The notes: generated from the sequence alone by a model not told the origin. DNA of 64,000 nt from an uncultured Candidatus Melainabacteria bacterium (GCA_949902595.1 CATLDC010000007.1:29496-93495); one strand, 5' to 3'; counted from the stretch's first letter, positions 14,364 through 46,826 are shown. Translations and numbers: made by a program.

Positions 14364-14430
14364 TATAAATATGAGGTACGGAAGCTCAAATATATTACAT
14401 AATTATGTTAAAGGTGTGAATTATTTGATA

Positions 14431-14505
14431 GTTTGAGAAAGGAGCATGAATATCTGGAGTGCTGTTGGGGAGTGTGATTGAGGGGTAAAAAAGAGGTTTG
14501 AGAAA
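14431..14505 (+). repeat. Left-end transposase-binding repeats
   Basis: GTTTGAGAAA at 14431-14440 and 14496-14505, inverse of the right-end TTTCTCAAAC copies. Confidence 0.8.
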
Positions 14506-14627
14506 AAAGTTAAAAAGTATCAAATTAGTATCAATTAATTCCCCCAAAGTAAAAAGGCTGTATGTATGATTATGGTTGTAATACAGGTTTGCCAAGGCTT
14601 GAGGGTTTGGTACTTTTTTGATATTTT

Positions 14628-14785
14628 TTTCGCACCTTTTTAGTTTTCTATTAAAAATCTATTAATTCCTTATTAATACTGGAGTTTTAGCCTATTTTGC
14701 AAAGATAAAAATTTCGCACCTTTTTGCACAAGGTGCGAAATTTTTTAGGCAAAAGGTGCGAAAAAAGGTACGCAAAGGTGCGAAA
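14628..14785. repeat. Array of AAGGTGCGAAA 11-mers near the left prophage end
   Basis: Reverse copies at 14628 and 14712; forward copies at 14730, 14753 and 14775; degenerate copy at 14765; 15-bp inverted repeat spanning 14708-14744. Confidence 0.85.
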
Positions 14786-14915
14786 TTTTTAAGGGATTAA
14801 AACAGGGGTATTATGACTACTATTATTAAACTTGAGGTTATTTGAGCAGGGATAACAAAATGTCCGGAAAAAATGTTTTTCACGAACATTTTTAGGTAGA
14901 ATTTATATAAATATT

Positions 14916-15134
14916 CTAAGAATTATGGTTGGTTACTGCTGCATCGGAAGTATTTAACTCCGCAATTTCTTTCAATATTTTCGAGCATTCTTCAATAATA
15001 TCTGTAAAACTATCGTAAGCCATTGAGTAATTCAGACTTGCGCGCTGATAATTTTCAGCTTTCATCTCTTCAAATTGAGCTTGAGCAGCTAATAATCTAG
15101 TCTCAAGTTCTAGTAATACTATATTATCACTCAT
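14916..15134 (-). CDS. Phage hypothetical protein
   Basis: 72 aa, GGAG RBS, last gene of the early operon. Confidence 0.6.
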   Translation of the reverse strand: MSDNIVLLELETRLLAAQAQFEEMKAENYQRASLNYSMAYDSFTDIIEECSKILKEIAELNTSDAAVTNHNS

Positions 15135-15142
15135 GATAACTC

Positions 15143-15346
15143 CTAATTTAACTCATCAAATTTTTTATCAATAATCGGCTGTAAAACTTTATTAAACCAC
15201 TTTATGAACTCTTTCTGCTGTTCATCTGTTAGATTCTTACAAGATATCCAGCATGGATGATAATTATCAACATTGCCTTTTGCTTTATAACCGATATAAA
15301 ATAACGAACGTTGATGTTTTGTCATAAAATCATAATCCCGCATCAA
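15143..15346 (-). CDS. Phage hypothetical protein
   Basis: 67 aa, overlaps its upstream neighbour in the operon. Confidence 0.55.
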   Translation of the reverse strand: MMRDYDFMTKHQRSLFYIGYKAKGNVDNYHPCWISCKNLTDEQQKEFIKWFNKVLQPIIDKKFDELN

Positions 15347-15542
15347 TGATTAATCTTGATTTAATAACATTCCAATCGATTTCCATACAAGCATTGTATG
15401 CTTGTAGTGTTTCTGTTGAGTTAAGACATACAGTCTGTTGAATATTAGAATATTTATTTTGCATTAAAAATACAGAGAATATAATCAGTGTTGCTGCTAA
15501 TGCAACAATAAAATGGCGTAAATCTTTGTAGTATAGATACAT
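15330..15542 (-). CDS. Phage small membrane protein
   Basis: 70 aa, one hydrophobic segment, GGAGG RBS. Confidence 0.55.
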   Translation of the reverse strand: MYLYYKDLRHFIVALAATLIIFSVFLMQNKYSNIQQTVCLNSTETLQAYNACMEIDWNVIKSRLIIDAGL

Positions 15543-15543
15543 T

Positions 15544-15861
15544 TTAACCTCCTAAGTTAAATAATTTGAGTTGTACATTATTTGTGGTTTTATTCAAATT
15601 TTTCTGTAGTTGCCGTTCTTGCCAAGCTTTGCGAGCAATTTCTACTAACTCGTAATAATCAATATGGTCAGTTTCTGGTGGTAATTCCGGCTCATCAGCA
15701 AGAGAACCGCAACCCCAGGGACAAAAATTAGGATAAGTATGCCTAGAAGTAGTAACAATTCTTCCGCATTTTGGACACCATTTAGATACCATTAGCCTGT
15801 CCCTCTTCTGCAAGACGTTTGAACTCATCATCAAGTGTTCGCTGGCCTTCAACAGGTACAT
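15544..15861 (-). CDS. Phage zinc-ribbon protein (true start probably ~15792)
   Basis: WCPKCG...FCPWGCG cysteine motifs. Confidence 0.6.
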   Translation of the reverse strand: MYLLKASEHLMMSSNVLQKRDRLMVSKWCPKCGRIVTTSRHTYPNFCPWGCGSLADEPELPPETDHIDYYELVEIARKAWQERQLQKNLNKTTNNVQLKLFNLGG

Positions 15862-16189
15862 TTTTGGCTTTGATTTTTGTTTTTAAGACTTCTCTGACAA
15901 ATTTTTCACTTACACCTATAGTTCTTGCGATATCTTTAATTGAGCGCGCAGAATAGTCATATTTTTCTCTAATATATTGGATTTGTATATTCATCCAAGG
16001 ACGTGCCGGAACCTGAATAATATTACCCTGCATGTATACCAGCAGTTTGATGGCAGTTTCGCTTCCGCAAAGCTCAAATACATCCTTCATAGTCTGTGTA
16101 GGCATATCATCTACGGTCAAGTCTGCCGTTTTGATTTTAAGACGTCCTACCTGAATTTCTTCAATGTCTGTTTCTGTAAAATTAATCAT
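15782..16189 (-). CDS. Mor/C-like transcription activator
   Basis: ELCGSETAIKLLVYMQGNIIQVP followed by HTH SIKDIARTIGVSEKFVREVL. Confidence 0.8.
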   Translation of the reverse strand: MINFTETDIEEIQVGRLKIKTADLTVDDMPTQTMKDVFELCGSETAIKLLVYMQGNIIQVPARPWMNIQIQYIREKYDYSARSIKDIARTIGVSEKFVREVLKTKIKAKNVPVEGQRTLDDEFKRLAEEGQANGI

Positions 16190-16221
16190 TTTGACCTCAT
16201 CAGTTAACGCATAACGCTAAG

Positions 16222-16249
16222 ACAAGCTGCGGAGGGATTTGCAGCTTGT
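16222..16249. terminator. Hairpin between gam and mor
   Basis: ACAAGCTGC-N10-GCAGCTTGT. Confidence 0.45.
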
Positions 16250-16259
16250 TTCGGTCTTT

Positions 16260-16808
16260 TTAAGCTTCACCTACTCCTGCAGCAATACGCGCAACATCAG
16301 GTGTAATGGTTAGGCTGTCTTTTGTAACAATTTGTGCTCCGATTTTGGAGAGAGTTGCAGCATCCAACTCACGGAGCTTGTCTTTGTCGATTTTTTTATC
16401 AATCTTAAGGCAGAAATCAAGATTTGCAGCTTCAATTGATTTAATTACCACATCAACATTGTTTTCAAGTTTTACACTTGAAGACACTCTGTAAGCTACA
16501 GTGCCATAGTTAAGAGTTTTACTGCGTTTATTGAGGAAAGAATCCTTATTTTGTTCACAGAAGCGCGTTATTTCGCTAGAAATTCTTTTCTGTTCTGATA
16601 CAATTTCTTCTGATTCAGCGGTATACTTTTCCTTGATATTGTTAATTTCCAGGGTCTGTAAGCCTTCAATTCTGGATTTTTCAATCTCCAGATTGCCCAA
16701 TTTTCTGATAGCACAATCCACGTCGTGCCAGTTTTTGTAAATACTTTCTTTTTTTGTTCTACCCATATCTGTCAACCTTTGGTCGGAACACATTTTGTAA
16801 TACTGCAA
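16260..16808 (-). CDS. gam: Mu Gam-like host-nuclease inhibitor
   Basis: Coiled-coil N-half, RFCEQNKDSFL.KRSKTLNYGTVAYR, and C-terminal KIDKDKL...ITKDSLTITP typical of Gam. Confidence 0.85.
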   Translation of the reverse strand: MQYYKMCSDQRLTDMGRTKKESIYKNWHDVDCAIRKLGNLEIEKSRIEGLQTLEINNIKEKYTAESEEIVSEQKRISSEITRFCEQNKDSFLNKRSKTLNYGTVAYRVSSSVKLENNVDVVIKSIEAANLDFCLKIDKKIDKDKLRELDAATLSKIGAQIVTKDSLTITPDVARIAAGVGEA

Positions 16809-16860
16809 GCCGGTTTTGTATCTACAGGTGTTCCCTTGCTGTAGTACTACCGGCCGGATG

Positions 16861-17100
16861 TTATCCTACAAGTTGTAAAACGCAGTTTGATAAGTCTTTA
16901 ACAGCCTTTTGATACCCTATCTCTGCTGCAATATGGGTAGTAATCTGGCTTATCATTTCAGGATTGTAGAACAACGCTTTTGCGTAATAGTTTGTTAAAA
17001 AAGATTTTCTACTCACGGATTCTGAGAAGAGCTTTTCTATCCTGTTTTTTGTATCAACTTTGGTATTTTCAATCTTAAAAGATGGGGATTTGTCGTTCAT
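16861..17100 (-). CDS. Phage hypothetical protein
   Basis: 79 aa, in the early operon. Confidence 0.55.
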   Translation of the reverse strand: MNDKSPSFKIENTKVDTKNRIEKLFSESVSRKSFLTNYYAKALFYNPEMISQITTHIAAEIGYQKAVKDLSNCVLQLVG

Positions 17101-17103
17101 AGT

Positions 17104-17550
17104 TTATCTTCCTTTCTGCATTTCTGTAATAGCTTTAATTAACTTGCTTACATCGTTGTGTTTGATGAATTTAAGACTGTCTTTGCCTGTAATTTTTTTG
17201 CATATAATATCTAACCCTTGCGCTCTGGCTTCGTCCGTTTTTGCGTAGGAGACATCAAACCACATAGCCTCAATTTTTCTAAGCTGTGCAGGTGTTGCCA
17301 TTCCACTTCGCCATCCAAGATTATTGTATTTGTATTGCCTCATCTTTGTAGACGCTTTAGGCTTAAATACACCCGCTTCATTTGCTTTATCGCGCAAATT
17401 GTTGAGAAAAATATTTGCATCATATGTTGATAAATCTTTGCTGGATTCTGCCCCGTTATACTGCGATAACATTTCTCTGTATGTATCTTCATCAATTGCA
17501 AGAAGCTTGCGCATATATCCGATTTGTTGTCGTTGTGCTGATGTTGACAT
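17104..17550 (-). CDS. GemA/DUF1018-like regulatory protein
   Basis: RKLLAIDEDTYREMLSQYNGAESSKDLS and ATPAQLRKIEAMW. Confidence 0.8.
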   Translation of the reverse strand: MSTSAQRQQIGYMRKLLAIDEDTYREMLSQYNGAESSKDLSTYDANIFLNNLRDKANEAGVFKPKASTKMRQYKYNNLGWRSGMATPAQLRKIEAMWFDVSYAKTDEARAQGLDIICKKITGKDSLKFIKHNDVSKLIKAITEMQKGR

Positions 17551-17561
17551 TTTATCCCTTT

Positions 17562-18497
17562 CTATAATGCAATCTTTTTATACGCTGTCTTAACCATATT
17601 GATGTTTAAATTCTGTTTTGATGTAATAAGAATATCGTTAGTTCTTTTAATAAGGTTGAAAAGATGTCTGGTATTGCTTTTACAGAGTCTATAAAAAGTC
17701 TGCTGTATTTCTAAATTACTTTCTGGAAAAACTTGGACAACAAGTTTTTGAGAATCTTCCAAAGTGAGCGAATCAAGCTTTTCAATATATCCAAGCCTGT
17801 TGGTAACATACGAAAATTCTCCCTGCATCCGTACAAGATTGCCGGAAAGTCTTTCTGTTCCAACGAATAATAATCCACAAGTAAAATCACATCTGTCATG
17901 AATTTTTCTTAAAGTTCTAAAGCAAGAACTATTTATATTTTCAGCTTCATCAATAATAATTAAATATTCACTCCCCTTAAGTCTTTCTACAAGTATTTCA
18001 GTAAATTCTTGACAAGACATATTGTTATTCATTTTTAAACGCAGAGCTCTACCGATAAGCATTAAAAGAGTACGTGTTGAAATTTTTTCATCTGGGTCAA
18101 TAACTATAACTCCGGAATGTGTCTGCGCATAATTTTTAATGGCTGTTGTCTTACCTAATCCAGAAGAACCAACACAAAGACCTATTTCTGAATTTAACTG
18201 ACAGGCACGTGCAACATTAAAAAATTTATTAGCTACTGAAGTTTTAACAAAGTTGAAACGAATTTTCTTATGAGATTTGCGTTCTCTTGACATTTGAAGA
18301 AACTTTGATAAAACAGCTTCAAACTCGTCCAGATTGCCGTCATATTTTTCATTAAGGTAAGTATTTACTGCTGATTGTGAATAATCCAGCTTTTTGGCCA
18401 AATCTTTCTGCGAAATTTCTTGTTCTTGTATTAGTTCTTTTAACTCGTTTAATAGTTGTTGATTTTGTCGTCTTTCCTCTGTCATTTTTCCCTCCAT
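17562..18497 (-). CDS. MuB-like transposition AAA+ ATPase with N-terminal HTH
   Basis: ISQKDLAKKLDYSQSAVNTYLNEKY; Walker A GSSGLGKTT; Walker B IIIDEAE; directly follows the transposase. Confidence 0.9.
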   Translation of the reverse strand: MEGKMTEERRQNQQLLNELKELIQEQEISQKDLAKKLDYSQSAVNTYLNEKYDGNLDEFEAVLSKFLQMSRERKSHKKIRFNFVKTSVANKFFNVARACQLNSEIGLCVGSSGLGKTTAIKNYAQTHSGVIVIDPDEKISTRTLLMLIGRALRLKMNNNMSCQEFTEILVERLKGSEYLIIIDEAENINSSCFRTLRKIHDRCDFTCGLLFVGTERLSGNLVRMQGEFSYVTNRLGYIEKLDSLTLEDSQKLVVQVFPESNLEIQQTFYRLCKSNTRHLFNLIKRTNDILITSKQNLNINMVKTAYKKIAL

Positions 18498-18529
18498 TTA
18501 TTTTTGTAACAGGCGTACAAGCTTGTATT

Positions 18530-20635
18530 TTAACAATAAGCTTCATTTACTCCGTTTGCGATTAAGTAATCAAATTCTGAATAATCAATTTCATATTCTT
18601 CTTTCTTAATATTTATCAAGTTTTCATCTTCAATGTATGTAATTTCGTAATCTGTATCAGTAGTGACTACAGGTTTGAGCTTTTTATATGTATACTGGGG
18701 AGCTGTCGCGTACATCTGTTTTAAAAGCTTGTTCATCGGATTTATCGTGTTCTTTTCTAGCTTTGCAAGATTTCTTGCCTGGAACTTAAACTCTTCGTAA
18801 TCTTTTGGAACATCAGAGGCCTTAGCAAGAGCATTAACACTTGTTGTCCGCTCTGCACGGCAAATATAATCCCCCTGTAAGCTGTAAACTTTTACGTAAG
18901 ACAAATCAAAGTAACTGTATTTGATAACACAATTGTCATTAAGTCCAAAAAGTCTTTCATTCCAATAATAAGTGTCAAACAGTTTAACCCCATTGCGCTG
19001 GATTTTACGAACTTCTTCCGCCATCATTAAATCATCAAGTTCGTCAATATTTATGCCTTCACCGCGAGCCTGTTCAACATACTCTGCAATTGTAAAGTTT
19101 TTGTCTTTGCGACATCGGCATTGTCTGTAATAAGTGTTTAACCACCCATCAATGCTCATTTTTACTTCATCTATAGTAGGGACGTAATCCCCGGCAAGAA
19201 GTACATGCTTTTTTTCGTTCCTCTTTGTATGAGCAGGCTTGTTGCTAATACCATTACCAATGTATGTATTCCAGAGCTTTGCATAAGATTCAGTAAACTC
19301 TTTAAAAAATCTCTCAATAATTTTTGCACGCCCGTTGTATGCCTTTGAAAAATAGGTTTTTATCCCGAGCTTTTCATACAATCCGGCCGTAGAAGGTGTA
19401 AGCGAGGCCGTCACTCCTGACTGTATAGCAGCACTGCCGTTTGTAAAAAACTTGCTTTTGAAGGCTTTACCATTATCCAGCTGAACCCATTCTGGTTTTT
19501 TGCCCATATATATAATTGCGTTGCGAAGAGCTGAAGCTATACTTTGCGTATTTTCTGTAAGCATAATATCGTATCCGACTAAATCTTCAGTTGCGACATC
19601 AAGAAACGCAACTAAGCTAGCCCTGCAAGGCTTGCCATTGAACGGATTTTGCACCATAAAGTCAAGAGTATGACCATCACCAACAATCCATTGAGCAAAT
19701 TCTATTTTGCTATAATCTCTCTGAATATATGGTAAAGCTTTGTCTCTACAAGCTTTTAAGCCTTCTCTGGCATAAATAACATGCGCATAATAATTTCTAG
19801 TAACATACTGCCATACGTGGCGATAAGCGCTGTATGAGTGTTGAACTTCTCCCATGCTATTTAACTCAAGCCCGATAAGCTGATATGCCCGTCCAAGAGC
19901 ATAACAGTTCTGGTGGAGCATGTATTTCAAGAGCAAATATTTTTCAATCTGTGTAAGTGAAGATTGAAGCCGGCTTTCACTGCCAAATCCATAGTTAGGG
20001 ATTAGGGCGTAAAAGTCGCGATTACTTTCTTTATAAATCTTTTCATACCTATAAAGCGTACTAAGCCCAACTTTACCGATTTTATTTAAAATATCTTTAT
20101 GGATAAACCCGTTATTATATAATTCTATAAAATCTTTGTCAGATTTGGTTTTATTACCCTTGCTGCTATTTCTAAACTCCTGCAAAGCATATATCAAATC
20201 GACTTTTGCTAGAGCCTTTTTCTTTTCACTTTCAGGAGTGATTCTGGGAAGTTCTTCTATATTATTGAGACCAAAAAGAGAGAGAGCTTGTTCCTGCTCT
20301 GTCGTAAGTGCAACAGGTAAGCTCTCTTTAGACATGGTAGGAGATAAATCTTTTTCATCTGCCTTGGATAATAAAGAAAGACCGGCAGCAGGATTCAATG
20401 CTATAGAATGTGTGTGTTTATTATTGCTGCCGGGCGCACTATTAGAAGAAGAAATTAAATCTTGTAATTTTTTATTAAGAGAGCTGACAAGAATCTCGTA
20501 ACGTGCTCCGCCGTTACCGTCTACTATGCGGTATTCGACTTTGCCTTTAGAGCACCAAATTTGAAAAGTTCTTTCGCTCTTCCCGCTCAATTCCGTAAGC
20601 TGTTTTATTGATATGTATTTAACCGCTTTAGCCAC
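18530..20635 (-). CDS. MuA-like DDE transposase (GTG start)
   Basis: N-terminal Mu-type HTH; catalytic GDGHTLD, LDNGKAF, RAKIIERFF; C-terminal Mu transposase-like region; uninterrupted 701 aa. Confidence 0.93.
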   Translation of the reverse strand: MAKAVKYISIKQLTELSGKSERTFQIWCSKGKVEYRIVDGNGGARYEILVSSLNKKLQDLISSSNSAPGSNNKHTHSIALNPAAGLSLLSKADEKDLSPTMSKESLPVALTTEQEQALSLFGLNNIEELPRITPESEKKKALAKVDLIYALQEFRNSSKGNKTKSDKDFIELYNNGFIHKDILNKIGKVGLSTLYRYEKIYKESNRDFYALIPNYGFGSESRLQSSLTQIEKYLLLKYMLHQNCYALGRAYQLIGLELNSMGEVQHSYSAYRHVWQYVTRNYYAHVIYAREGLKACRDKALPYIQRDYSKIEFAQWIVGDGHTLDFMVQNPFNGKPCRASLVAFLDVATEDLVGYDIMLTENTQSIASALRNAIIYMGKKPEWVQLDNGKAFKSKFFTNGSAAIQSGVTASLTPSTAGLYEKLGIKTYFSKAYNGRAKIIERFFKEFTESYAKLWNTYIGNGISNKPAHTKRNEKKHVLLAGDYVPTIDEVKMSIDGWLNTYYRQCRCRKDKNFTIAEYVEQARGEGINIDELDDLMMAEEVRKIQRNGVKLFDTYYWNERLFGLNDNCVIKYSYFDLSYVKVYSLQGDYICRAERTTSVNALAKASDVPKDYEEFKFQARNLAKLEKNTINPMNKLLKQMYATAPQYTYKKLKPVVTTDTDYEITYIEDENLINIKKEEYEIDYSEFDYLIANGVNEAYC

Positions 20636-20649
20636 ACTCTACCTCTTAG

Positions 20650-20766
20650 TTAAAGAAATGTGTGCTGACAGCGCAGAGCACTGCCAACACACGGTGAAAA
20701 AATGTTAAATAAATTGAAACTCTCTAATCTTTTAACAATCTTGTTCAAAACTAAAATATTTAACAT
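20650..20766 (-). CDS. Putative 38-aa leader peptide MLNILVLNKIVKRLESFNLFNIFSPCVGSALRCQHTFL
   Basis: AGAGGTGA RBS 5 nt before ATG; stop 14 nt before the transposase GTG; below the ORF-track size cut-off. Confidence 0.45.
   Translation of the reverse strand: MLNILVLNKIVKRLESFNLFNIFSPCVGSALRCQHTFL
20660..20692 (-). terminator. 15-bp RNA hairpin followed by AUUUCUUU, upstream of the transposase
   Basis: Minus strand GTGTGTTGGCAGTGC-TCT-GCGCTGTCAGCACAC pairs fully with three G-U wobbles, which would be C-A mismatches on the plus strand. Confidence 0.6.
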
Positions 20767-20920
20767 TTGTTTCACCTCTCGATTTTAAATTCTGAGGCGA
20801 TTGTAACAATTTGCTTGTAAAAGCTTGAATATCATGCCATAATAGCCATGCAGAATTTTATTTTGTGACAAAGCGGTTGAGTACCGACCAAAGTTCAAAA
20901 CCGCTTTGTGTTTTCAATTT

Positions 20921-20957
20921 ATGTAATAATTATTACATATAAAAAGTAATAAGTCAA
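20921..20957 (-). promoter_or_regulatory. Early leftward promoter overlapping an 18-bp perfect palindrome (putative operator)
   Basis: Minus strand TTGACT-17-AATAAT with TG extension; ATGTAATAATTATTACAT palindrome at 20921-20938. Confidence 0.65.
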
Positions 20958-20971
20958 GCACAAATGTACCT

Positions 20972-21850
20972 ATGGATATAGCAAATCAATTAAAGAGAAT
21001 AAGACTGGAAAAGGGGCTTTCACAAACTGAATTAGCTTCCTTACTTAATTCTACGCAAAAAACTATATCATTTTGGGAAAAAGGAGTAAATATTCCAAGC
21101 AAGGAAAATCTAACATTGATTTGTGAAAAATTAAACATTAGTAAAAGTTACTTTCAAGACAATAATATTATTAAGATTGGCTCTAGGCTCAAACAATTAC
21201 GAGATTTTATGGGTGATAGTCAAGATTCATTTGCCAAAAAACTGGGTATTTCTCTCAAAGCATATTGGAACTATGAAAATGATGAGAGAAGCATGCCATC
21301 AGAAATGCTATACAACATTATAAGATTATATGGTATTAATACTAATTGGCTTCTAACCGGAGAAGGTGAGATGCTATTATCTAAGTATAATGTTTTAGAA
21401 AGCATAGCTTCTGGTGATGAAAAAAGTTTTTGTTATGACCTTCCTGTGCGTGGAGAAGTTGAAGCTTCATGCGGATATGGTGTAACGGTTTACAATGAGG
21501 AACAAACTGCGACATACAGCGTAAGTAAAAAATTTATTGATGATTTAAAAATTAATCCTAAAACATCAGAAATAATTTTTGCCCGCGGTGATTCAATGGA
21601 GAGCACTATATACGGTGGTGACAGCGTACTTGTGGACAAGTCCAAAACGGATATTCAGGACGGAGTAATATACTGCATAAATCTTGACGGTCAAATTATG
21701 ATTAAAAGGCTTCAAAAAATTGCCAGAGATATTGTAGGGCTTATTTCTGATAACCCGAAATACAAAACAAGAGAAATTGACCTTAAGCACGATTCAGACA
21801 TTTTTAAAATCATTGGCGAAGTGCGCTGGTGGGGAAGAATAGCTAAATAA
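20972..21850 (+). CDS. Phage repressor: two XRE HTH domains plus S24 autopeptidase
   Basis: LKRIRLEKGLSQTELA, IGSRLKQLR...SQDSFAKKLGIS; ARGDSMESTI (Ser) and IKRL (Lys); divergent from the transposase. Confidence 0.9.
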   Translation: MDIANQLKRIRLEKGLSQTELASLLNSTQKTISFWEKGVNIPSKENLTLICEKLNISKSYFQDNNIIKIGSRLKQLRDFMGDSQDSFAKKLGISLKAYWNYENDERSMPSEMLYNIIRLYGINTNWLLTGEGEMLLSKYNVLESIASGDEKSFCYDLPVRGEVEASCGYGVTVYNEEQTATYSVSKKFIDDLKINPKTSEIIFARGDSMESTIYGGDSVLVDKSKTDIQDGVIYCINLDGQIMIKRLQKIARDIVGLISDNPKYKTREIDLKHDSDIFKIIGEVRWWGRIAK

Positions 21851-21901: not shown

Positions 21902-22366
21902 TCAATTCATCCGTGCGCAAATCCGCTTTGCAAGGTCGTATGCAATATCTCCAAGCATTTCATTTTTTGTTTCCTCGGAAATCCGCATGAACTCTCTTTG
22001 GTCGAGATTTCTTGGTGCGTAACCAAAGTTATGCGCTGCCGCGTATTCTTCAGCAGTACCAATAATCAGTTCTTCGCGAGTAATCTTACTTGACATACTT
22101 TTTCGCAAAAAACCATCCAATTGTAGAATCTTACTTTCTATCCGCCCCATCTTCTTGCGCCAGGCTTCGTATGGCTCTGACCAACTTTTAAATTTTTTTC
22201 CGCTAGATTCTCCCTCTGTCTCAAAATTTTGGTCGATTGCAAACAAAAGTTTTCTACGGGCAATCCTTAAAGCCGGGTTTAAATTGCCAATTTCCTTCGC
22301 ATAACGTGCAAGAGTGTCGGTGACTTCTTTGTTATTGAGTTTTGCTTCAAAATACTTGCTAGTCAT
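21902..22366 (-). CDS. Mu gpG / virion morphogenesis (tail completion) protein
   Basis: NFETEG, KILQLDGFLRKSM, IGTAEEYAAAHNFG...REFMRIS. Confidence 0.8.
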   Translation of the reverse strand: MTSKYFEAKLNNKEVTDTLARYAKEIGNLNPALRIARRKLLFAIDQNFETEGESSGKKFKSWSEPYEAWRKKMGRIESKILQLDGFLRKSMSSKITREELIIGTAEEYAAAHNFGYAPRNLDQREFMRISEETKNEMLGDIAYDLAKRICARMN

Positions 22367-22553
22367 AATAAACTCCTACAATACCAGTGTAATATTCTCC
22401 ATTTTGTGTGGATACATCTACATAACCTCCGTAGTTGCCAGTTGTGCCGTCTACTGCATCGATTAAATCCTTTGCCGTCCAGTCTCCAGCCCACTCAACA
22501 TAATATTTGTGAGTACCGAATCCAGATGAGAGTAATTTTTTTTTGATTTTCAT
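22359..22553 (-). CDS. Small Gly/Tyr-rich hypothetical protein
   Basis: 64 aa, GAGG RBS, overlaps the gpG start. Confidence 0.55.
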   Translation of the reverse strand: MKIKKKLLSSGFGTHKYYVEWAGDWTAKDLIDAVDGTTGNYGGYVDVSTQNGEYYTGIVGVYYD

Positions 22554-22595
22554 TTTTAACCTCTTGTCAAACTGGTAAAATATGTAATAATATAT

Positions 22596-25443: not shown

Positions 25444-25458
25444 TTTTTGTCGTCCTTT

Positions 25459-25570: not shown

Positions 25571-25657
25571 GTAAATTTCACTTTGATGGTGACCTGTAAA
25601 TTTTATCCAAGTTAGTATGTTGATATTTTGTCACCCGACCATTTCTCTACGTACGTC

Positions 25658-34560: not shown

Positions 34561-34581
34561 GGTAATGGAAAGGAATTAAAA

Positions 34582-39235: not shown

Positions 39236-39747
39236 TATTTGGTAATGTTATAGCTATTGATGAAGCAAAAGCCAGAGTTCGGCTTAAACTTCCGGACATG
39301 GATGATTACGAGACTCCGGGTTGGATTTTTGTTCCGCAGGCTTGCACTGTCGGGGATAAATCTTATAACCTTCCGGCAATTAATACGCTTGTCGCAGCAG
39401 TTATGGACAGTGAAATGCAGGACGGATGCCTTCTCGGAGCCCTCTATAACGACGAAGATGTCTGTATCCTGGGCGATAAAAATGTTAAGTACATCAAATT
39501 TGAGGACGGGGCTTATTTTAAATACGACAAAACAACCGGATTCTTTGAAGGCAAAGCACCTAATAAAATCTATATGGAAGCACCTGTAATTGAGCTTAAA
39601 GGTGATGTTGTAAATACCGGGAACTTTTCTTCAACAGGTCAGGTTTCTGACAACAAATCTTCAATGCAGGCTATGAGAGATGTTTATAACTCTCATACTC
39701 ATACTTGTCCGGATGGAACGACAAGCACAGCAATGGGGCAAATGTAG
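39229..39747 (+). CDS. Baseplate spike (gpV)
   Basis: ARVRLKLPD, YNLPAIN, GCLLGALYN; C-terminal iron-binding HTH residues YNSHTHT. Confidence 0.88.
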   Translation: MLVFGNVIAIDEAKARVRLKLPDMDDYETPGWIFVPQACTVGDKSYNLPAINTLVAAVMDSEMQDGCLLGALYNDEDVCILGDKNVKYIKFEDGAYFKYDKTTGFFEGKAPNKIYMEAPVIELKGDVVNTGNFSSTGQVSDNKSSMQAMRDVYNSHTHTCPDGTTSTAMGQM

Positions 39748-39800
39748 CTGGTAGGATTGACGTTAATCCGTCTCCGCTTATTGTGAAAGGGCAAATGTAG
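39735..39800 (+). repeat. Interspersed repeat locus 12: variant A unit flanked by a 12-bp direct repeat
   Basis: GGGCAAATGTAG at 39736-39747 and 39789-39800; core GTAG followed by palindrome GGATTGACGTTAATCC. Confidence 0.85.
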
Positions 39801-40175
39801 ATGAATACTGTAGATATAACAACATTAAATACAAACTACTGGCAGCACAAAGCCGGCACAATCGGCGGGATTGCGACAGACCTTGAGGATGTCGGGCAGT
39901 GCTACGAGACAATAATCGGGCTCACAAAGGGTGATGTCCCGCATCAGCCTAACTTAGGCGCCAATATCATTCAGGCAATTGGTGAAAACCCCGCAGATGC
40001 AGACAGGATTGTAAGGGCGCTTTTGTTAACAGAGCTTTTGAAGCAGGAGCCCAGAGGAAAAATTAAGAATCTGGGCACTGATTACAACGAAAAAGGACAG
40101 TTTTTTGTAAAAATTACATACAGTCTTGTGGCAGATGAGACACAGATAGCAACGAGAGAGGTTATTATAAAATGA
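39801..40175 (+). CDS. Baseplate wedge gpW/gp25-like protein
   Basis: DVGQCYETIIGLTKGDVPHQPNLG, LLKQEPR. Confidence 0.75.
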   Translation: MNTVDITTLNTNYWQHKAGTIGGIATDLEDVGQCYETIIGLTKGDVPHQPNLGANIIQAIGENPADADRIVRALLLTELLKQEPRGKIKNLGTDYNEKGQFFVKITYSLVADETQIATREVIIK

Positions 40176-41383
40176 ATACCAAGCCAAACTTTATAGAAAT
40201 AGACCCCAAGGCGGATGAAGCGCTTTTGGTTAACAAATATCTGGAACTTACCAAAAAGACCGAACTATTTCCTGCGCAGAGCGAACGGATTTTAATAAGT
40301 CTTATTGCTTATTATGCCAATCTCGTTAAGAATCAGTTCAATGACGCAGCAGCTCTTAATCTGGTAAGGTTCAGCCGGGCACCTGTTCTTGATTTTATCG
40401 GAGAACTTTTTGGATGCACCAGGCTCAACGCAGAATGCGGACAAGATATACTTCAAATTACTCTCTTTGAAGAGTTTTCAACTGACTTAACTATCGAGAA
40501 AGGCTTGGAGATACAGACTAAGGACGGTAAATATATATTTAAGACATCTGAAGATGTTATTGTACCTGCCGGTGAAACGATTGTAACAGTACCACTTAAA
40601 TGTGAAATCGCAACAGCAGCCGTAAATTCTTATGGCGTTGGCGATATCAATATTTTGATTAAGCCACTTAGTTATATCAAAAATGTTACTAATATCAAAG
40701 GTGTATATGGTGGGCTTGATGAGGAATCTGACGAATCGTATATAGAAAGAATCCTTCTTTCTCCTGAAAGCTACACCTGTGCAGGTTCTTATGGCTCGTA
40801 TATTTATCATACAAAATCTGCTCATCAGGACATTGTGGATGTCGAGGCAGAAAGCCCGCAGCTTCCGGCCAAGGTAAGCATTGATTCAGAAGAGTTGCAG
40901 GAGTTTAGCGTTGATTATAAGTCGGGAGTTGTAACATTCACACATAATGAGCAGGTGTTTGAAATCACCATTCCACCCGCAGCTTCCGTATTTGTATATC
41001 CGCTTGTTAAAGATGGAGGGGCACAGTTTGACATTGTTAAGAGTGCAATTGAATCCAAGCTAAATGACCGCAATTGTATGCCAATGACTGACTATATTAG
41101 TGTCTTAGAACCGGTTGCTATTGAAAAAGAACTCAGTATTACTGTTATTATTAGCGAAAACGCTGATAAAGAGAAAGTAAAATCACTTGTAAATATTGCT
41201 ATAAACCAGCTTTGCGCAGATTATCGAAAAACACTTAATACTTCACTTGTTCCTTTGAGGTTTATAACGCCATTAGGTAATATTGATGGTGTACACAATG
41301 TCATTATAAACAATCTAAAAGCTGAAGAGCAATGTAAGCTTAACGAGTATTTTGTACTAACTGCGAAGGTGGAGTTTGAATGA
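40172..41383 (+). CDS. Baseplate J-like protein
   Basis: LFPAQSERIL, SRAPVLDFIG, GGLDEESDESYIERI, AGSYGSYIYH. Confidence 0.88.
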   Translation: MNTKPNFIEIDPKADEALLVNKYLELTKKTELFPAQSERILISLIAYYANLVKNQFNDAAALNLVRFSRAPVLDFIGELFGCTRLNAECGQDILQITLFEEFSTDLTIEKGLEIQTKDGKYIFKTSEDVIVPAGETIVTVPLKCEIATAAVNSYGVGDINILIKPLSYIKNVTNIKGVYGGLDEESDESYIERILLSPESYTCAGSYGSYIYHTKSAHQDIVDVEAESPQLPAKVSIDSEELQEFSVDYKSGVVTFTHNEQVFEITIPPAASVFVYPLVKDGGAQFDIVKSAIESKLNDRNCMPMTDYISVLEPVAIEKELSITVIISENADKEKVKSLVNIAINQLCADYRKTLNTSLVPLRFITPLGNIDGVHNVIINNLKAEEQCKLNEYFVLTAKVEFE

Positions 41384-41910
41384 GTCAAAGTTTGCTTCCA
41401 AAAAATTTACAGGATAAATCTTTTTTAGCACTAGAAGAGTGTGTTAAAGAGAGTATAAATATTGACTTAAAAACATTCATGACTTCAATCTGCGATTTTC
41501 TTCCTGATAATATTCTTTCATTTCTTGCTGAACAGTTTCATATTCTTGAAGAGGGGTGGAATGATTGTCAGAGCAGAACAGAACGAGTTGCATTAATCAA
41601 AAAAGCCGTCACTCTTCATAAAAGGAAAGGTACAAGAGGCTGCATTGAGGATTTCTTTGAGGCAATGGGAGCAAAATGCCGATTCTGGAGAGATTATGAC
41701 GGAATCCCTCATCATTTTATGATTGACCTCGACTATTTTGATAAAGGAGCTGATGTTTATGAGGTCTGTACAAATATTCAAAAAAATATAGATAAATACA
41801 AACAATTGCGTGCAAAGCTGGATGAGATTAATTTTTCAGTTGGTGTACAAAAAGATATAAATATCGCAAACGCCGTGCTCGCGGGGGAAATTATAACAGT
41901 GAGGATGTAA
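41380..41910 (+). CDS. Tail protein I (P2 gpI-like)
   Basis: LSFLAEQFHI, ALIKKAVTLHKRKGT. Confidence 0.85.
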   Translation: MSQSLLPKNLQDKSFLALEECVKESINIDLKTFMTSICDFLPDNILSFLAEQFHILEEGWNDCQSRTERVALIKKAVTLHKRKGTRGCIEDFFEAMGAKCRFWRDYDGIPHHFMIDLDYFDKGADVYEVCTNIQKNIDKYKQLRAKLDEINFSVGVQKDINIANAVLAGEIITVRM

Positions 41911-41913
41911 AAT

Positions 41914-44535
41914 ATGACTCTTACAAAAATCGGTCTTGAAAAACAGATTAATTGCTTATTAAACGGAGCTCAATACGGTATTAAATATATCGCAGTAGGT
42001 GATGGCAACGGGTCTGTTCCAACTCCGACGAACGAGGACACAAAGCTTGTGAATGAAGTCTGGCGCGGCGAAGTTACGGAGATTATAAACGAATCACCAA
42101 AATTTACTGCGGTTGCGTATATTCCGGCAGATGTCGGAGACTTTATAATACGCGAAATCGGGCTTTTTGATGAAAACAATAATCTCCTTTTTGTCTCCCA
42201 GATGGATGAAACGCCCAAAAAGTCGACAAACAGCGGGCTTGTGAAACAAATCGGACTCAAACTTGTATTTGAACTACAAAACGGGTTAAGTGCAATCATT
42301 ATTGACCCTTCAACCGTTACAGCTTCAACTAATTATGTATCTGAAAACTTTCAAAAACTTAGCGAAAAATCGAAACCAAACGGCTATGCATCCCTGGACG
42401 ATTCTGGTAAAGTGCCCACATCGCAGCTTCCTTTATACGTACGCGGAGATAAGCTTTATTACATAGACCCGGAAGGTAATGAACAGGAATTTAAAAAAGG
42501 TGGCAGTGGTCTCCCGCTTGGCACTCTCTTCTACTCTGACCACATCCTTGAAGGTGATGATGCTAAGGGCAACGCGCTTCTCGGTTCATACATTTATAAG
42601 AATGCTGCTCCGGGGCGTTACGGGCATCCGGAATTTTACAACAGGTGGGTAGCAGAGTATCAAAACAGCACACGCTATGCATTTGAGCAGCCGGTGCTTT
42701 CTGCAAACGGCACATTGGGCGGGGATAGTTTTGCGGTAGCTGCGAGTAGTCAGCACGCAAACATACCGGGCGGCGCTTGGAATGCTTTTAATGGTACAAA
42801 CACTGGTGTGAATGATTGTTGGCATTCTTCTGGTGTTAACAATGAATGGCTTACATTCTATAACCCATTACCTATAAATGTTACAAAGCTGACTATCACC
42901 AACCGTAACACTACGACCAGTGGTGATTGGCACTTGGTTGGAAGTGGTACGGTATATGGTTCCAACGATAACAGCAATTGGGAGGAGTTGGTTGAGTTTA
43001 CCAATCCAAACACAACAACGGATTGCGGGAATGCTAGTTGGGAGATTGATTTAAGCAGTAATAATAAAAGTTATAAATATTACAAGTTGCAGGTTAATCC
43101 TGTTGAAGGTGACGGATATGTTATCATTGGCAAGCTTGAAATCACTGCGGGAAGTTTTCTCCTTAAGCACTCTAAAGGTCATATATTCTATGACATTACG
43201 GACAAGTCTGTTGTTGATGATATTTTTGATTTTACGGGTGTTGCGTATTTTTACGGAGTAGATGAGGAGAATGAACGTATATTCTTGCCTCGTTCTGTGA
43301 GGTACTTCAAGAATGGTAGTCTGGACACTGTTGGGGAGTTTGGCCGAGGCCAGTTGCCAAATATTAAATTTAGTTTAGGTTTTAACGCAACAAACGTTTC
43401 TAGCGCCAGCGGAGCTGCGAAAGGTGTCAATTATTCAAATGGATGGTCTACAGGAAACAATAAAAACAACGGTTTTACCTGGGTAGATGTAGCAGCTTCT
43501 AATTATTCTGACGCTTATACCGATAACAACATTATTGACACAGACCACACCAACCTCCTTGTCTACATGGTAGTCGGTACGACAGAAGGCACATCAGCAC
43601 CTATTGACGCGATTGACATTACTACAAGTGAAAACGACACGATTCCTCTCGGATTCAGTACTTATCAGGGGGCTGCGCAGCCGTCTTTGGCTTGGCTTGC
43701 TGCTGTCGATGGCTGGGAGAACGGTAAAGAGCATCTTTCGTTCTTTAACAAGTTCAAGGACAAGATTGGCCAGCCTTTCTGTAATGGGTTTGTAAGGAAT
43801 TATACAGACGAGTACACTAAGTATGACCTTGTTATCAATCAGGATGATATGAAGTTCAGGTTGCCGTTGTTGAATGGGACAGAGCGGAAGATTGATTATA
43901 CCGATGGCACTCCTTTAACAAATGAGGAGGAATATGTTGTTCTTCAAAACGGGCTTATTGCAGGTAATATAAAAAATCCGCAAGCTTGGCAGGATTCGAA
44001 ATTAATGATAAACGGGGTTATGCTTGGTTCGAATAAGAATCCGACTTCATCAGCATTAAATGGTGCTTACTACGCTTTTAGTGCGTCAGTGTCCAAGGGT
44101 GATGTTGCTAAACCAATAGGTTTGACTGATGTTAAGTTTTATCCTGCTAAAGGTGACGGCACTCTCTACTTCAAGGTCAGCAATGCTGTTCAGAATCTTG
44201 AGGTTCTTAACGCAGCGGAGACTAAGGCCAATATGCTTACCAGAGCTAATAAAGCCGAGATTGTTGGCTGGGGGATGCCTGATTACAGCGCTGGTGTTGT
44301 TTTGCCAAGCGGGTCGGCAGCACCTAGTGCGGGAGTTGTAATGTTGAACTCCGGAACAATTGGGACTGCTTGGTTATATATAAATGGAGAAGCTGTTTTG
44401 CGCTCACAAATTACTAATACTACTGGTCATTTCTTTACTCTTGCCCCTATTGATAAAGACGAAATAGTAACAGCAACAGGTATCGGCGTGGGAGGCGCAA
44501 TACAATTTTATCCATTGAAAGGAGTTAGTAACTAA
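41914..44535 (+). CDS. Tail fibre protein with F5/8-type-C (discoidin-like) carbohydrate-binding module
   Basis: N-terminal anchor (IAVGDGNG...VGDFIIREIGLFD); collar-like GLPLGTLF and IPLGF segments; AWNAFNG...WHS...EWLTF...VYGSND...YKYYKL. Confidence 0.85.
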   Translation: MTLTKIGLEKQINCLLNGAQYGIKYIAVGDGNGSVPTPTNEDTKLVNEVWRGEVTEIINESPKFTAVAYIPADVGDFIIREIGLFDENNNLLFVSQMDETPKKSTNSGLVKQIGLKLVFELQNGLSAIIIDPSTVTASTNYVSENFQKLSEKSKPNGYASLDDSGKVPTSQLPLYVRGDKLYYIDPEGNEQEFKKGGSGLPLGTLFYSDHILEGDDAKGNALLGSYIYKNAAPGRYGHPEFYNRWVAEYQNSTRYAFEQPVLSANGTLGGDSFAVAASSQHANIPGGAWNAFNGTNTGVNDCWHSSGVNNEWLTFYNPLPINVTKLTITNRNTTTSGDWHLVGSGTVYGSNDNSNWEELVEFTNPNTTTDCGNASWEIDLSSNNKSYKYYKLQVNPVEGDGYVIIGKLEITAGSFLLKHSKGHIFYDITDKSVVDDIFDFTGVAYFYGVDEENERIFLPRSVRYFKNGSLDTVGEFGRGQLPNIKFSLGFNATNVSSASGAAKGVNYSNGWSTGNNKNNGFTWVDVAASNYSDAYTDNNIIDTDHTNLLVYMVVGTTEGTSAPIDAIDITTSENDTIPLGFSTYQGAAQPSLAWLAAVDGWENGKEHLSFFNKFKDKIGQPFCNGFVRNYTDEYTKYDLVINQDDMKFRLPLLNGTERKIDYTDGTPLTNEEEYVVLQNGLIAGNIKNPQAWQDSKLMINGVMLGSNKNPTSSALNGAYYAFSASVSKGDVAKPIGLTDVKFYPAKGDGTLYFKVSNAVQNLEVLNAAETKANMLTRANKAEIVGWGMPDYSAGVVLPSGSAAPSAGVVMLNSGTIGTAWLYINGEAVLRSQITNTTGHFFTLAPIDKDEIVTATGIGVGGAIQFYPLKGVSN

Positions 44536-45173
44536 TGAAAATGTACGCAAAGATTATTAACAACGATACAGGGCTATGCATGGTTGGGTCAGGTAACAAC
44601 ACCGCTCAATATCGTTCAATGGCTATGACGCCTCTTGATGTCCAGCAATCGGATGTTGACGGGCAGTGGTATCTGAAGAGCAAATGCCCGATGAAGAGCG
44701 CCGAAGAGAAGGAGCAGGAGGAGCGCGAGCGTCTTGATGGGTTAATGATGACGCGCGGGGATGTGTTTGAGGCCTTGATTCTTGCGAAGGGTTTAGGCAA
44801 GGCACAGCTTAGGGGGATGATTGATGCGTATGAAGTTGATGAAGTAACCAAAGCGTTGTATCTTAACAGGTTTGACGAGGCGTTGAATTTTTACCGCGGG
44901 TATCCGATTTTTGATTTGTTGGGCGAGGTTGTCGGGATTACGAGCGAGATGTGGGACAGGTTTTTTGAGAGCAAGGATTACAGGTATCTGACAACTTGTA
45001 AGTTAACAATTAACCCGACTCCTGAGGATTCTACGGTTACTATTACACCGAATCCGGTGCCTTATGGCGAGATTGCACACTACAGGGTTGAATGCGAGGG
45101 ATATCAGGCCGTTGAGGGTGATGTTGTAGTGGTAGAGGATGAGGTTTTTGATGTAGTTCTGGAGGAGGCTTAG
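44535..45173 (+). CDS. Tail fibre-associated/assembly protein with C-terminal Ig/PEGA-like segment
   Basis: DVQQSDVDGQWYLK; LTINPTPEDSTVTI...YRVECEGY. Confidence 0.55.
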   Translation: MKMYAKIINNDTGLCMVGSGNNTAQYRSMAMTPLDVQQSDVDGQWYLKSKCPMKSAEEKEQEERERLDGLMMTRGDVFEALILAKGLGKAQLRGMIDAYEVDEVTKALYLNRFDEALNFYRGYPIFDLLGEVVGITSEMWDRFFESKDYRYLTTCKLTINPTPEDSTVTITPNPVPYGEIAHYRVECEGYQAVEGDVVVVEDEVFDVVLEEA

Positions 45174-45176
45174 ATT

Positions 45177-45437
45177 ATGAAAAAGTATATTGCTCTAGGT
45201 TTGTTTTTTTGTTCTCCAATTGTGTTTGCGGGTGATATGGAGAATGAGATTTCTGATAGGTCAATACAGGTTATTGAGATGGAAGAGAACAAGATTAATG
45301 TAATTGTTATGAAGCAGCCATTGAATGAAAAGTCTAATCAAAAGATTATACTTAAGCGGAATTGGCTTGGGGTGTATGTGCAGATTAATGGCAAGGTTAA
45401 GGTTAATCCGTTAACCAGCACGTATGAGGTGCAGTAA
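45177..45437 (+). CDS. Small exported hypothetical protein
   Basis: Signal-peptide-like MKKYIALGLFFCSPIVFA; GGAGG RBS. Confidence 0.55.
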   Translation: MKKYIALGLFFCSPIVFAGDMENEISDRSIQVIEMEENKINVIVMKQPLNEKSNQKIILKRNWLGVYVQINGKVKVNPLTSTYEVQ

Positions 45438-45439
45438 TT

Positions 45440-45970
45440 ATGGCAATAATTTTAACAGGAAAAGCAAGAATAGAACAGATTAAAGCCCGTTTATGGAAAA
45501 CTTTGGACAATCAGCTTGTACAGCTTGATAATGGGGAGTTGCTCATAGCTCCTAGATATTTGGTTACAGATAATAATACAAACCCTTTTGGCGATAACGA
45601 TTTATCGGATGTCCGGGCAAGTCATTTTCATGATATTGGATGTGCTTATCATCAGTTGATTTATGTTACCAAATCTTTGGATTTTCTTATTGATAACGGA
45701 TTTTTACATCCTTACACAAAAGAAAACGGTGAATTGATTAATGTTCTGGATGATTTACCGCTGGCTTGGATAGAAATCAGACCGTGCAAATATCGAGAAG
45801 TGAATAAGATTTTTAAACAAATCCTACGAGCTTCCGGCGAAAGCAAAGCCAAATCAAGCCTTATGTACTGGGCGGTTTGCCATAACTTTAAATATTGGTT
45901 TGACAGACCGGAAGGGCTTAAAAAAAGATTATTGTTTACGCAAGAGTACGGGAATGTTAGAAAATTATAG
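45440..45970 (+). CDS. Phage hypothetical protein (DUF1353-like)
   Basis: APRYLVTD...ASHFHDIGC...VNKIFKQIL...MYWAV pattern. Confidence 0.5.
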   Translation: MAIILTGKARIEQIKARLWKTLDNQLVQLDNGELLIAPRYLVTDNNTNPFGDNDLSDVRASHFHDIGCAYHQLIYVTKSLDFLIDNGFLHPYTKENGELINVLDDLPLAWIEIRPCKYREVNKIFKQILRASGESKAKSSLMYWAVCHNFKYWFDRPEGLKKRLLFTQEYGNVRKL

Positions 45971-45987
45971 CGAATGAGGATTTTACT

Positions 45988-46422
45988 ATGCAAATGTCGA
46001 AAAACGGAAAGAATATATTAAAGAAGCTTGAAGGACTTAAATTATGCGCATATAGATGTTCTTCTGGAGTTTGGACGATTGGTTATGGGCATACTGGAAT
46101 TACAGTAAAATCCGGTGATATTATTACAGAAGCAACAGCCAATAAGCTTTTTGAACAAGATATCAAGTTCTTTGAAAATGCTATAAATACTTTGGTTACA
46201 GTTAAATTAAATCAAAATCAATTTGATGCGCTGGTTTCCTTTTGTTTCAACATAGGAATTGGAAAAGACGGATTTGCCGGTAGTACAATGAGAAAGTTAC
46301 TGAATTGTGGAGAATACGCAGCAGCTTCAGAGCAATTTTTGCGTTGGGTTTATTCTAATGGCAAAGTTTCGGATGGTCTAAGACGTAGAAGAATGAAGGA
46401 GCGTGAGTTATTTTTATCTTGA
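45988..46422 (+). CDS. Endolysin, GH24 phage lysozyme
   Basis: LKKLEGLKLCAYRCSSGVWTIGYGHT, LNQNQFDALVSFCFNIG, GLRRRRMKERELF. Confidence 0.93.
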   Translation: MQMSKNGKNILKKLEGLKLCAYRCSSGVWTIGYGHTGITVKSGDIITEATANKLFEQDIKFFENAINTLVTVKLNQNQFDALVSFCFNIGIGKDGFAGSTMRKLLNCGEYAAASEQFLRWVYSNGKVSDGLRRRRMKERELFLS

Positions 46423-46439
46423 ATTAAAACTGTTTTAGA

Positions 46440-46466
46440 GGGTTATTAATATATTATTAATAACCC
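46440..46466. terminator. Hairpin after the lysin
   Basis: GGGTTATTAAT-ATATT-ATTAATAACCC. Confidence 0.5.
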
Positions 46467-46646
46467 CGATTTTGCTTAGTTCAGTTCACAAGAAGGGGGT
46501 AAATGAGCCTTATGGAGCTTACAGGGTGCTTAGACGAAGGGTATAATTCAAGAGGTGTAGTTGAATGATATCTAAGATTATAAAAACAATCTTCTACTTT
46601 TAGGACTATCATTTAGATGTAGAAGGGTTTTGAGTCCAAAAATTTT

Positions 46647-46777
46647 TTTCTCAAACCTCGTAACAAATTTTCTCAAACTCCTAGCAAAGTCGGTAAAAAT
46701 AGGGTTAAGTCCTTGCAGGATAAAGGATTGAGTTAAAATTTAAAATTTCTCAAACTCCTAGCAAACTTTTCTCAAAC
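46647..46777 (-). repeat. Right-end transposase-binding repeats
   Basis: TTTCTCAAAC at 46647, 46669, 46746 and 46768 (two pairs, each 22 bp apart). Confidence 0.88.
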
Positions 46778-46826
46778 CTCGAGGCACGTTACAAAAGGCT
46801 CAAACCCTTTGATAGCTATGCTTTTC

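Follow-up and report, generated by a model that had tools for sequence, protein, structure and literature searches.

We found that a 64,000-nt stretch of DNA from an uncultured Candidatus Melainabacteria bacterium (GCA_949902595.1 CATLDC010000007.1:29496-93495), called the window below and numbered from its first letter, very probably carries an intact Mu-like myovirus, a temperate phage that transposes and whose genes are laid out much as in BcepMu, in a Gastranaerophilales chromosome. The phage integrates by DDE transposition, using a MuA-type transposase and a MuB-type AAA+ partner on TG..CA ends that carry presumed GTTTGAGAAA binding sites. Read directly from the sequence, the element proper occupies 14415-46793 and is 32,379 bp long. 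The window lies on contig 7 of a 2.10-Mb metagenome-assembled genome (MAG) that is 99.8% complete. Its ArgRS has neighbours at 76-99% identity in MAGs that bear the titles Candidatus Gastranaerophilales, Melainabacteria or Vampirovibrio; by these neighbours the host belongs to the order Gastranaerophilales, in agreement with the melainabacterial host proposed in an earlier note on this DNA.

The earlier note had placed the element at 14410-46798, with TGT...ACA termini, a 5-bp duplication AAAGG and the 10-mer GTTTGAGAAA exactly 16 nt inside both ends. All of these features were borne out and the ends are exact, but that span counts both copies of the duplication. The 5' TGT is found at 14415 directly after the left AAAGG, where the sequence reads TGTGAATT... 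(longer reading TGTGAATTATTTGATAGTTTGAGAAA), and the 3' ACA closes at 46793 in ...CACGTTACA (longer reading ...TTTCTCAAACCTCGAGGCACGTTACA), followed by the right AAAGG. The outermost copies of GTTTGAGAAA occupy 14431-14440 and, as the reverse complement, 46768-46777; exactly 16 nt separate each of them from its terminus, with further exact copies at 14496 on the plus strand and at 46647, 46669 and 46746 on the minus strand. The 2.1-Mb genome holds 24 exact copies of this 10-mer, six of them within ~150 bp of the ends and inverted and 18 elsewhere, and the clustering at the element ends is far beyond chance. The same end sites stand at the same offsets in variant phages whose adjacent bases differ. 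The element has, then, TG...CA termini with inverted, repeated, putative transposase-binding sites. The ends of Mu carry sites L1-L3 and R1-R3, and the asymmetry of the putative sites here, spaced on the left and packed on the right, recalls that arrangement.

The transposase gene encodes a MuA-family DDE protein with matches to Mu-transpos_C (46 bits) and DDE_2, both above the cut-off. When it was aligned with Mu A, the motifs GDG, LDN and IER fell at D269, D336 and E392, and the catalytic triad is intact. The adjacent gene encodes a MuB-type AAA+ target-DNA protein that is 26% identical to Mu B, with the Walker A (GLGKT) and Walker B (IIIDEAE) motifs aligned. Both genes belong to an early operon on the minus strand that is directed outward to the left end. 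Divergent from this operon is a repressor gene whose product has two helix-turn-helix (HTH) domains and an S24 domain containing a GDSM serine motif and a downstream lysine. The earlier note had recognised no ner, gin or mom, and neither Pfam nor PHROGs detected any of them on any open reading frame (ORF); upstream of A we found no Ner-like ORF, only ORFs of at most 41 aa without a family match. Searches of the element found no integrase or recombinase (Pfam, PHROGs), and tRNA and Rfam scans of it gave no matches.

The phage is recently mobile, because copies that are 99-100% identical occupy other sites in other samples. Insertion sites were counted as distinct junctions among the matches listed in exact-protein look-ups, and on this count the window phage and a 99%-identical twin occupy four sites. 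In the Logan assembly SRR34956994 the right end is 99.96% identical over 2.6 kb and is then followed, after ...TTACA, by TAAAACCCTTACAC... (site TAAAA). This flank is 100% identical to an uninterrupted intergenic stretch of the window genome (G000:C3:171570-171623) between a ClpB-like and a pilin-like gene. The twin, carried by the 52.8-kb contig SRR32497467_3866, lies beside rnpA and shows both junctions, GCCGG/TGTGAA... and ...TTACA/GCCGG, and a fourth flank, GCAAG, is present in SRR24792220. The phage is also carried by runs DRR8656xx. Identity between copies stops exactly at the proposed termini, after ...TTACA (46793). Four insertions for which both junctions were seen have the duplications AAAGG, GCCGG, CTCAG and AAAGC, the last two in more distant relatives with both junctions in single records. 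One phage is accordingly seen at many sites, with 5-bp duplications. Among 401 species-representative genomes of the order, that of the window was the only one to match the left-end sequence of the element, as expected of a sporadic, strain-variable element.

We found that 42 of 42 delimited frames of the element are open, including those of the transposase, MuB, repressor, terminase and lysin, and the transposase, MuB, head, tail and lysin frames are unbroken as the earlier note had stated. Of ten large proteins checked, nine have exact full matches on 5-7 other contigs in NCBI, ENA and Logan assemblies, and the tenth, MuB, is missing from the exact matches only through a different start chosen by gene callers. 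Four right-end proteins have exact matches on 7-8 contigs. Because independently assembled stretches (window 11916-18134 and 42988-49425) are 99.9-100% identical and the proteins match exactly, the parts so covered contain no frameshift.

The prophage separates the promoter block of one flagellin paralogue from its poly-G tract, because the joined flanks, with a single AAAGG, align gap-free across the junction with the leaders of four paralogous flagellin genes. These leaders consist of a conserved promoter-like block, ~60 nt, a poly-G tract, a ribosome-binding site and the ATG. The block left of the prophage aligns with the upstream regions of four flagellin paralogues of the same genome, and the same promoter block adjoins insertions of relatives. 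The modelled empty site is GTTAAAGG/CTCAAAC, and the empty leader would read GTTAAAGGCTCAAAC. The empty site predicted in the earlier note is supported by the four paralogous leaders without a gap, although it is absent from view at the orthologous locus.

Since the leaders are repeated (~10 times in the genome) and several contigs end in leaders or poly-G runs, we considered that a phage of another host might have been joined to this contig through leader sequence during assembly or binning. Such an artefact is extremely unlikely. Both junctions recur in independent ENA, NCBI and Logan assemblies, and the two flanks rebuild one leader exactly, with one AAAGG. Alternative sites of the same phage match the window genome at 100% (C3:171570) or 94% (C3:151602), and the GC content of the prophage (39.4%) matches that of the host genome (40.6%).

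Several points weigh against an intact phage in this leader. An exact left-end search and a search for transposase relatives in IMG/VR gave no matches, and induction, replicative transposition and packaging are predictions. In the element we identified no holin, and for a spanin there is no more than a lipoprotein candidate. Given the MAG origin, consensus errors in the parts without a second assembly are a formal possibility. The orthologous empty site was not found: the nearest relative (G061, 96% nucleotide identity) lacks the flagellin cassette too, its motA side being joined directly to window ~48753, and at 16 other motA-flank loci from other species of the group only motA matched. Exact look-up of the flagellin returned only prophage-occupied copies or contigs broken at the poly-G. 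In that nearest relative (G061:C110; L106 1289-1335) window ~14283-48752 is replaced by ~47 unrelated bases; the promoter, leader and gene are all missing, and flagellin paralogue content therefore varies between close strains.

The element might instead be a cryptic or domesticated remnant, immobile or particle-less, for example a tailocin or a transfer-agent-like unit. It has been observed as a prophage only, it has no IMG/VR relative, and throughout one cohort (ERR3199xxx) and three NCBI MAGs its insertion site is identical, as it would be under vertical inheritance. The open frames argue against a remnant, as do the 99-100% identical copies at three other sites with clean termini and 5-bp duplications. 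The element is also absent from the 400 other species representatives of the order, unlike a fixed domesticated element. We consider a remnant improbable, and an intact transposable phage remains the reading that we prefer.

Phages of the wider lineage were compared. More distant variants have capsid, TerL, repressor and lysin clusters at 90% identity or above and the same end architecture, and their genes are in the order seen here, with the packaging block likewise inverted. This is a separate transposable-phage lineage of Gastranaerophilales hosts. Lineage-wide, 12 of the 23 distinct insertions among the matches listed lie in flagellin-type leaders: 10 of 11 in variant B, 1 of 8 in variants C/D, and 1 of 4 for the window phage and its twin. 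Five events were classed by their left flank, in which the flagellin ATG is at most 36 nt from the junction or codons 1-3 are split, and the remaining leader events by their right flank, which holds the same promoter block and poly-G tract. The genome has 14 G/C runs of at least 9, and its ~5-10 flagellin-type leaders make up less than 0.1% of its length; measured against this share, the 12 of 23 insertions of the lineage amount to a several hundred-fold enrichment. The lineage enters flagellin leaders far above chance. The 11 leader events of relatives (10 in variant B, 1 in C/D) fall between the poly-G tract and the ATG, with one splitting codons 1-3, and in 11 of 11 the left end of the phage stands beside the flagellin coding sequence. 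The window phage is the exception, being upstream of the poly-G tract and in the opposite orientation, and 11 of the 12 leader events share one orientation. Two pairs of independent insertions are 1 bp apart within the same leader. The flanks of variant-B insertions are 70-86% identical to the window genome. No report of a flagellin-leader bias was found in the open-access full-text literature.

That 12 of 23 insertions share this kind of target could suggest site-specific integration at flagellin leaders by a dedicated recombinase rather than transposition. However, junction positions and 5-bp duplications differ at every event and 11 sites lie outside flagellin leaders. The ends are TG..CA with MuA-type sites, and Pfam and PHROGs gave no integrase or recombinase, so that we give site-specific integration almost no weight. 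Transposition leaves two accounts of the bias. The transposition machinery, a host factor or DNA structure may steer the phage into a ~50-bp leader stretch by the hypervariable poly-G, mostly in one orientation, and couple the prophage state to expression of a flagellin paralogue; we hold this tentatively, at slightly less than an even chance. Alternatively, flagellin silencing may be selected for or tolerated, which predicts insertions in coding sequence too. The flagellin coding regions are ~20-fold larger than the leaders, and none of the 23 listed insertions lies in them beyond codon 3. The two accounts stand roughly level.

There is precedent for a structural target preference in the hotspots of the Pseudomonas saltoviruses Ab30 and 2P1 (B3/D3112 group), which occur by REP/BIME hairpins, 55-61 bp away; in Ab30 they take ~5% of replicative events with no orientation bias (PMC5977238). 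Regional clustering beside structured repeats is common to those phages and the lineage described here, in which the repeats are G-tract flagellin leaders and REP-like repeats. The lineage differs from Ab30 in that about half of the surviving lysogenic insertions lie in one leader class, 11 of 12 in one orientation, and from both phages in tail type; there is no close sequence relationship. We also observed that non-flagellin insertion sites (G000 C3:171480-171640 and the flanks of L120, L154 and L196) adjoin dispersed REP-like G/C-tract repeats, of GGGGTGAGGGGT and CCCCTCACCC types, which occur on many contigs of the genome.

The flagellin leaders of the window genome carry their poly-G tract ~45 nt before the ATG. 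The tract at the window locus has 15 G, four other assemblies have 11, 12, 13 and 14 G at the same locus, and three paralogues have 11 G; other poly-G leaders lie at G000 C3:179868, C14:275, C14:24447 and C20:9444. This variation looks like slipped-strand variation of the phase-variation type, with homopolymer assembly error as the alternative.

A second set of sites, an array, is present at the left end only. All five of its AAGGTGCGAAA sites read AAGGTGTAACA at the same positions in a variant-B phage, while the GTTTGAGAAA end sites are unchanged; the array sites of that phage (L174, ~215-370 nt from its left end) read GGTGTAACA. A joint change of this sort is typical of protein-binding specificity sites and suggests that the array is one, its protein being different in the window and variant-B phages; the array could be an enhancer-like or pac-like element. 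Between the two phages the transposases (701 and 734 aa) and the TerS proteins differ, and the repressors are at least 90% identical.

The earlier note had called the prophage Mu-like. This holds in that we found every sequence-testable feature of a saltovirus, including the Mu-type portal (gp29), F (gp30), protease I and G together with Gam, GemA and Mor, but the layout is closer to that of BcepMu than to that of Mu, with the packaging module additionally inverted. The note was right on the size of 32.4 kb but not in calling it compact, as this length is ordinary for the group. Our data indicate that the kind of phage is known and the host group new; the phage is neither a Muvirus nor a Bcepmuvirus. 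The note had also described phages of this host group as poorly characterised; open-access full-text searches likewise returned no description of transposable or temperate phages of Melainabacteria, which is not proof of novelty.

The element shares with BcepMu and phiE255 an outward early operon on the opposite strand, with Mor and GemA distal and B and A proximal, a divergent repressor, and the Mu-type TerS, TerL, portal, F, G and I head genes. Its portal is most similar to those of BcepMu, phiE255 and Mu-like phages of Ralstonia and Pseudomonas (32-36%). The tail has the P2-type order of BcepMu (sheath, tube, tape measure, U, hub, D, V, W, J, I, H) and is collinear with BcepMu gp39-gp52. 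Matches to BcepMu were found for 13 of 42 proteins, all of the virion and at 28-48% amino-acid identity, with no early-region match. In contrast to BcepMu, where packaging genes are collinear with the head genes, the TerS-to-G block is inverted here, giving two divergent late units. The endolysin is at the far right, whereas the BcepMu lysis cassette follows the repressor, and the transposase is of MuA type (Mu-transpos_C), whereas that of BcepMu is annotated as Tn552/IS1604-like and gave no BLAST match. The S24 domain of the repressor and the host phylum also differ. The collinear gene order and genus-level relatedness that would place the phage in Bcepmuvirus are lacking.

With Mu the element shares the MuA-type DDE transposase (24% identity, triad kept), MuB, Gam, GemA, a Mor-like activator, TG..CA ends, asymmetric multiple end sites, the 5-bp duplication and the portal, F and I families. 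It differs in having no c-type repressor, ner, gin/G segment, mom or com, and in a non-collinear gene order; neither the c/ner regulation nor the gin/G segment nor the mom/com functions of a Muvirus gave a match in Pfam or PHROGs. The repressor is of LexA/CI type, which would imply SOS control. In the comparison with BcepMu the baseplate genes are collinear with its P2-annotated set. Among deposited phages the best transposase matches are Fusobacterium phiRTG5, Bacillus BalMu-1 and Faecalibacterium Mushu, at 24-29% in alignments that cover only part of its length; these phages have other structural modules and other hosts. Mushu and unnamed fecal-sample records among these matches are gut-associated.

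We propose that lysogeny would be held by the divergently transcribed HTH-HTH-S24 repressor, and that RecA-stimulated self-cleavage of the repressor would open the outward early operon (A, B, GemA, Gam, Mor), with replicative transposition to follow. Next, a Mor-type activator would turn on the late genes as two divergent units from ~28.5 kb, packaging leftward and head, tail and lysis rightward. Through headful packaging the ends would include host DNA, and lysis would be the work of the lysozyme. As the S24 repressor is intact and near-identical copies stand at different sites, the phage may be inducible, as the earlier note had suggested.

Gut Melainabacteria are uncultured, and for a transposable phage of this group the element provides ends known to the base, a complete map of the genes and signs that it is mobile at present. 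It could serve as a strain-tracking marker, a natural insertion mutagen and possibly a genetic tool once a host is grown. The prophage is predicted to silence or rewire one flagellin paralogue, and the repeated leader insertions of its relatives beside a length-variable poly-G connect the integration of these phages with a surface protein, flagellin. Should the bias have a mechanistic cause, few Mu-type systems would show so strong a regional choice of target.

Table 1. Features of the prophage and its flanks, in window coordinates.
Feature	Position	Strand	Evidence or remarks
Host motB	12364-13434		Pfam MotB_plug, OmpA
Host motA	13427-14200	-	Pfam MotA_ExbB, MotA_N; left chromosomal flank
Flagellin-type promoter/upstream block	14300-14409	+	TTGTAACGATTTT..GTTATTAATTTCCAAAATGTGGAATTATATAA..; severed from its gene by the prophage
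Target-site duplication, left copy	14410-14414	.	AAAGG
Left end	14415-14505	+	TGTG terminus and two GTTTGAGAAA sites (14431, 14496), presumed MuA binding sites L1, L2
Left-end-only array	14628-14785	.	Five (A)AGGTGCGAAA sites; two face one way and three the opposite way
Four small ORFs, distal early/middle	14916-15861	-
Mor-like late activator	15782-16189	-	phrog_836, late transcriptional activator, E 1e-6
Gam	16260-16808	-	phrog_491 Mu Gam-like, E 6.5e-30; precomputed Pfam Phage_Mu_Gam on identical copies
79-aa ORF	between Gam and GemA (block 16260-17550)	-
GemA	17104-17550	-	Precomputed Pfam GemA on identical copies
MuB-type AAA+ transposition protein	17562-18497	-	phrog_296, E 2.6e-57; AAA_22, N-terminal HTH
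MuA-type DDE transposase, 701 aa	18530-20635	-	Pfam Mu-transpos_C, DDE_2; phrog_310, E 5.9e-84
Divergent regulatory region, repressor gene to early operon	20636-20971	.	Only ORFs of at most 41 aa, no family match
Repressor, two HTH and S24 self-cleaving peptidase domain	20972-21850	+	Pfam HTH_3 x2, Peptidase_S24 E 8e-20
Packaging module	21902-28458	-	G, MuF, portal, TerL, TerS and three small ORFs
G/tail_S-like	21902-22366	-	Pfam Phage_tail_S on identical copies
MuF	22676-23974	-	Pfam Phage_Mu_F, E 1e-21
Mu portal	23971-25581	-	Pfam Portal_Mu, E 8e-88
TerL	25766-27316	-	Pfam Terminase_6N
TerS, DUF1804-type	27316-27756	-	Pfam DUF1804
Head/neck block	28699-34992	+	phrog_976, 673, 1005, 195, 55
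Mu I-type protease	28699-29781	+	phrog_976, E 5e-67; Mu-like_Pro weak
Scaffold/decoration protein	29817-30197	+
Major capsid	30292-31218	+
Adaptor	between capsid and sheath	+
Sheath	32473-33906	+	Pfam Phage_sheath_1C
Tube	34009-34560	+
Chaperone	after tube, in head/neck block	+
Tail block	35113-45970	+	phrog_788, 46, 52, 43, 6, 48, 1780
Tape measure	35113-37173	+	Pfam PhageMin_Tail
P2-type baseplate genes, U-, D-, V-, W-, J-, I-like	within 35113-45970	+
Tail fibre	41914-44535	+
Three accessory ORFs incl. lipoprotein (45177-45437)	up to 45970	+	Lipobox LFFC
Endolysin (lysozyme)	45988-46422	+	phrog_7, E 6e-60; Pfam Phage_lysozyme on identical copies
Right end	46647-46793	-	Four TTTCTCAAAC sites, two pairs 22 bp apart (46647/46669, 46746/46768), ...TTACA terminus
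Target-site duplication, right copy	46794-46798	.	AAAGG
Flagellin 5' leader and flagellin gene	46799-48716	+	Poly-G 46827-46841 (15 G)
Flagellin gene, 611 aa	46881-48716	+	Pfam Flagellin_N, Flagellin_C

Variant phages in other assemblies have the inverted, minus-strand packaging module in the same order. We rejected inverted repeats as an explanation of how the module was inverted, as the sole long inverted pairs belong to a family of 54-77-nt repeats and do not form a flanking pair. This family lies at or in late genes (25458-39800; for example at 25458, 25512, 25658, 27190, 27228, 28272, 28581, 29249, 31224, 33900, 33955, 37925, 37981 and 39768), and its orientation tracks the direction of transcription: copies in the packaging block are on the minus strand, those in the head-tail block on the plus strand. 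Pfam gave no match for most small ORFs of the element or for a 246-aa C-terminal extension of the window MuF. In variant-B relatives (L174:12623-13942, L175, L177, L178) precomputed Pfam assigns the MuF C-terminus to PBECR3, a toxin-type nuclease fold.

Full-length MuA homologues at 35-44% identity were found in 41 of 61 related genomes, with up to 18 matches each. Four contexts with listed ORFs or additional phage genes give no support to counting them as relatives of the window phage, and that reading was rejected. Three of these contexts, G033 (C3:~14200-20800), the first locus of G044 (C1:~97700-102700) and G034 (C1:~185200-189400), are repressor-A-B-type sets without virion genes. Each has an HTH repressor followed by A, a Walker-A protein of 240 aa and a further two or three small genes, over ~6-7 kb in G033 and G044; in appearance these sets are mini-Mu-type transposons or satellites. 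A naive scan for TG..CA and a duplication did not locate their ends, and three further contexts gave no virion-gene match. G050, the fourth, carries a more distant Mu-like early region. The window genome itself has a second full-length MuA homologue (C3:24345-26255, 34% identity), which was set aside as solitary, with no other phage genes at E 1e-5. Outside the window, the same genome carries tail-fibre-like genes at C8:82167-83821 that are related to 41914-45173 of the prophage.

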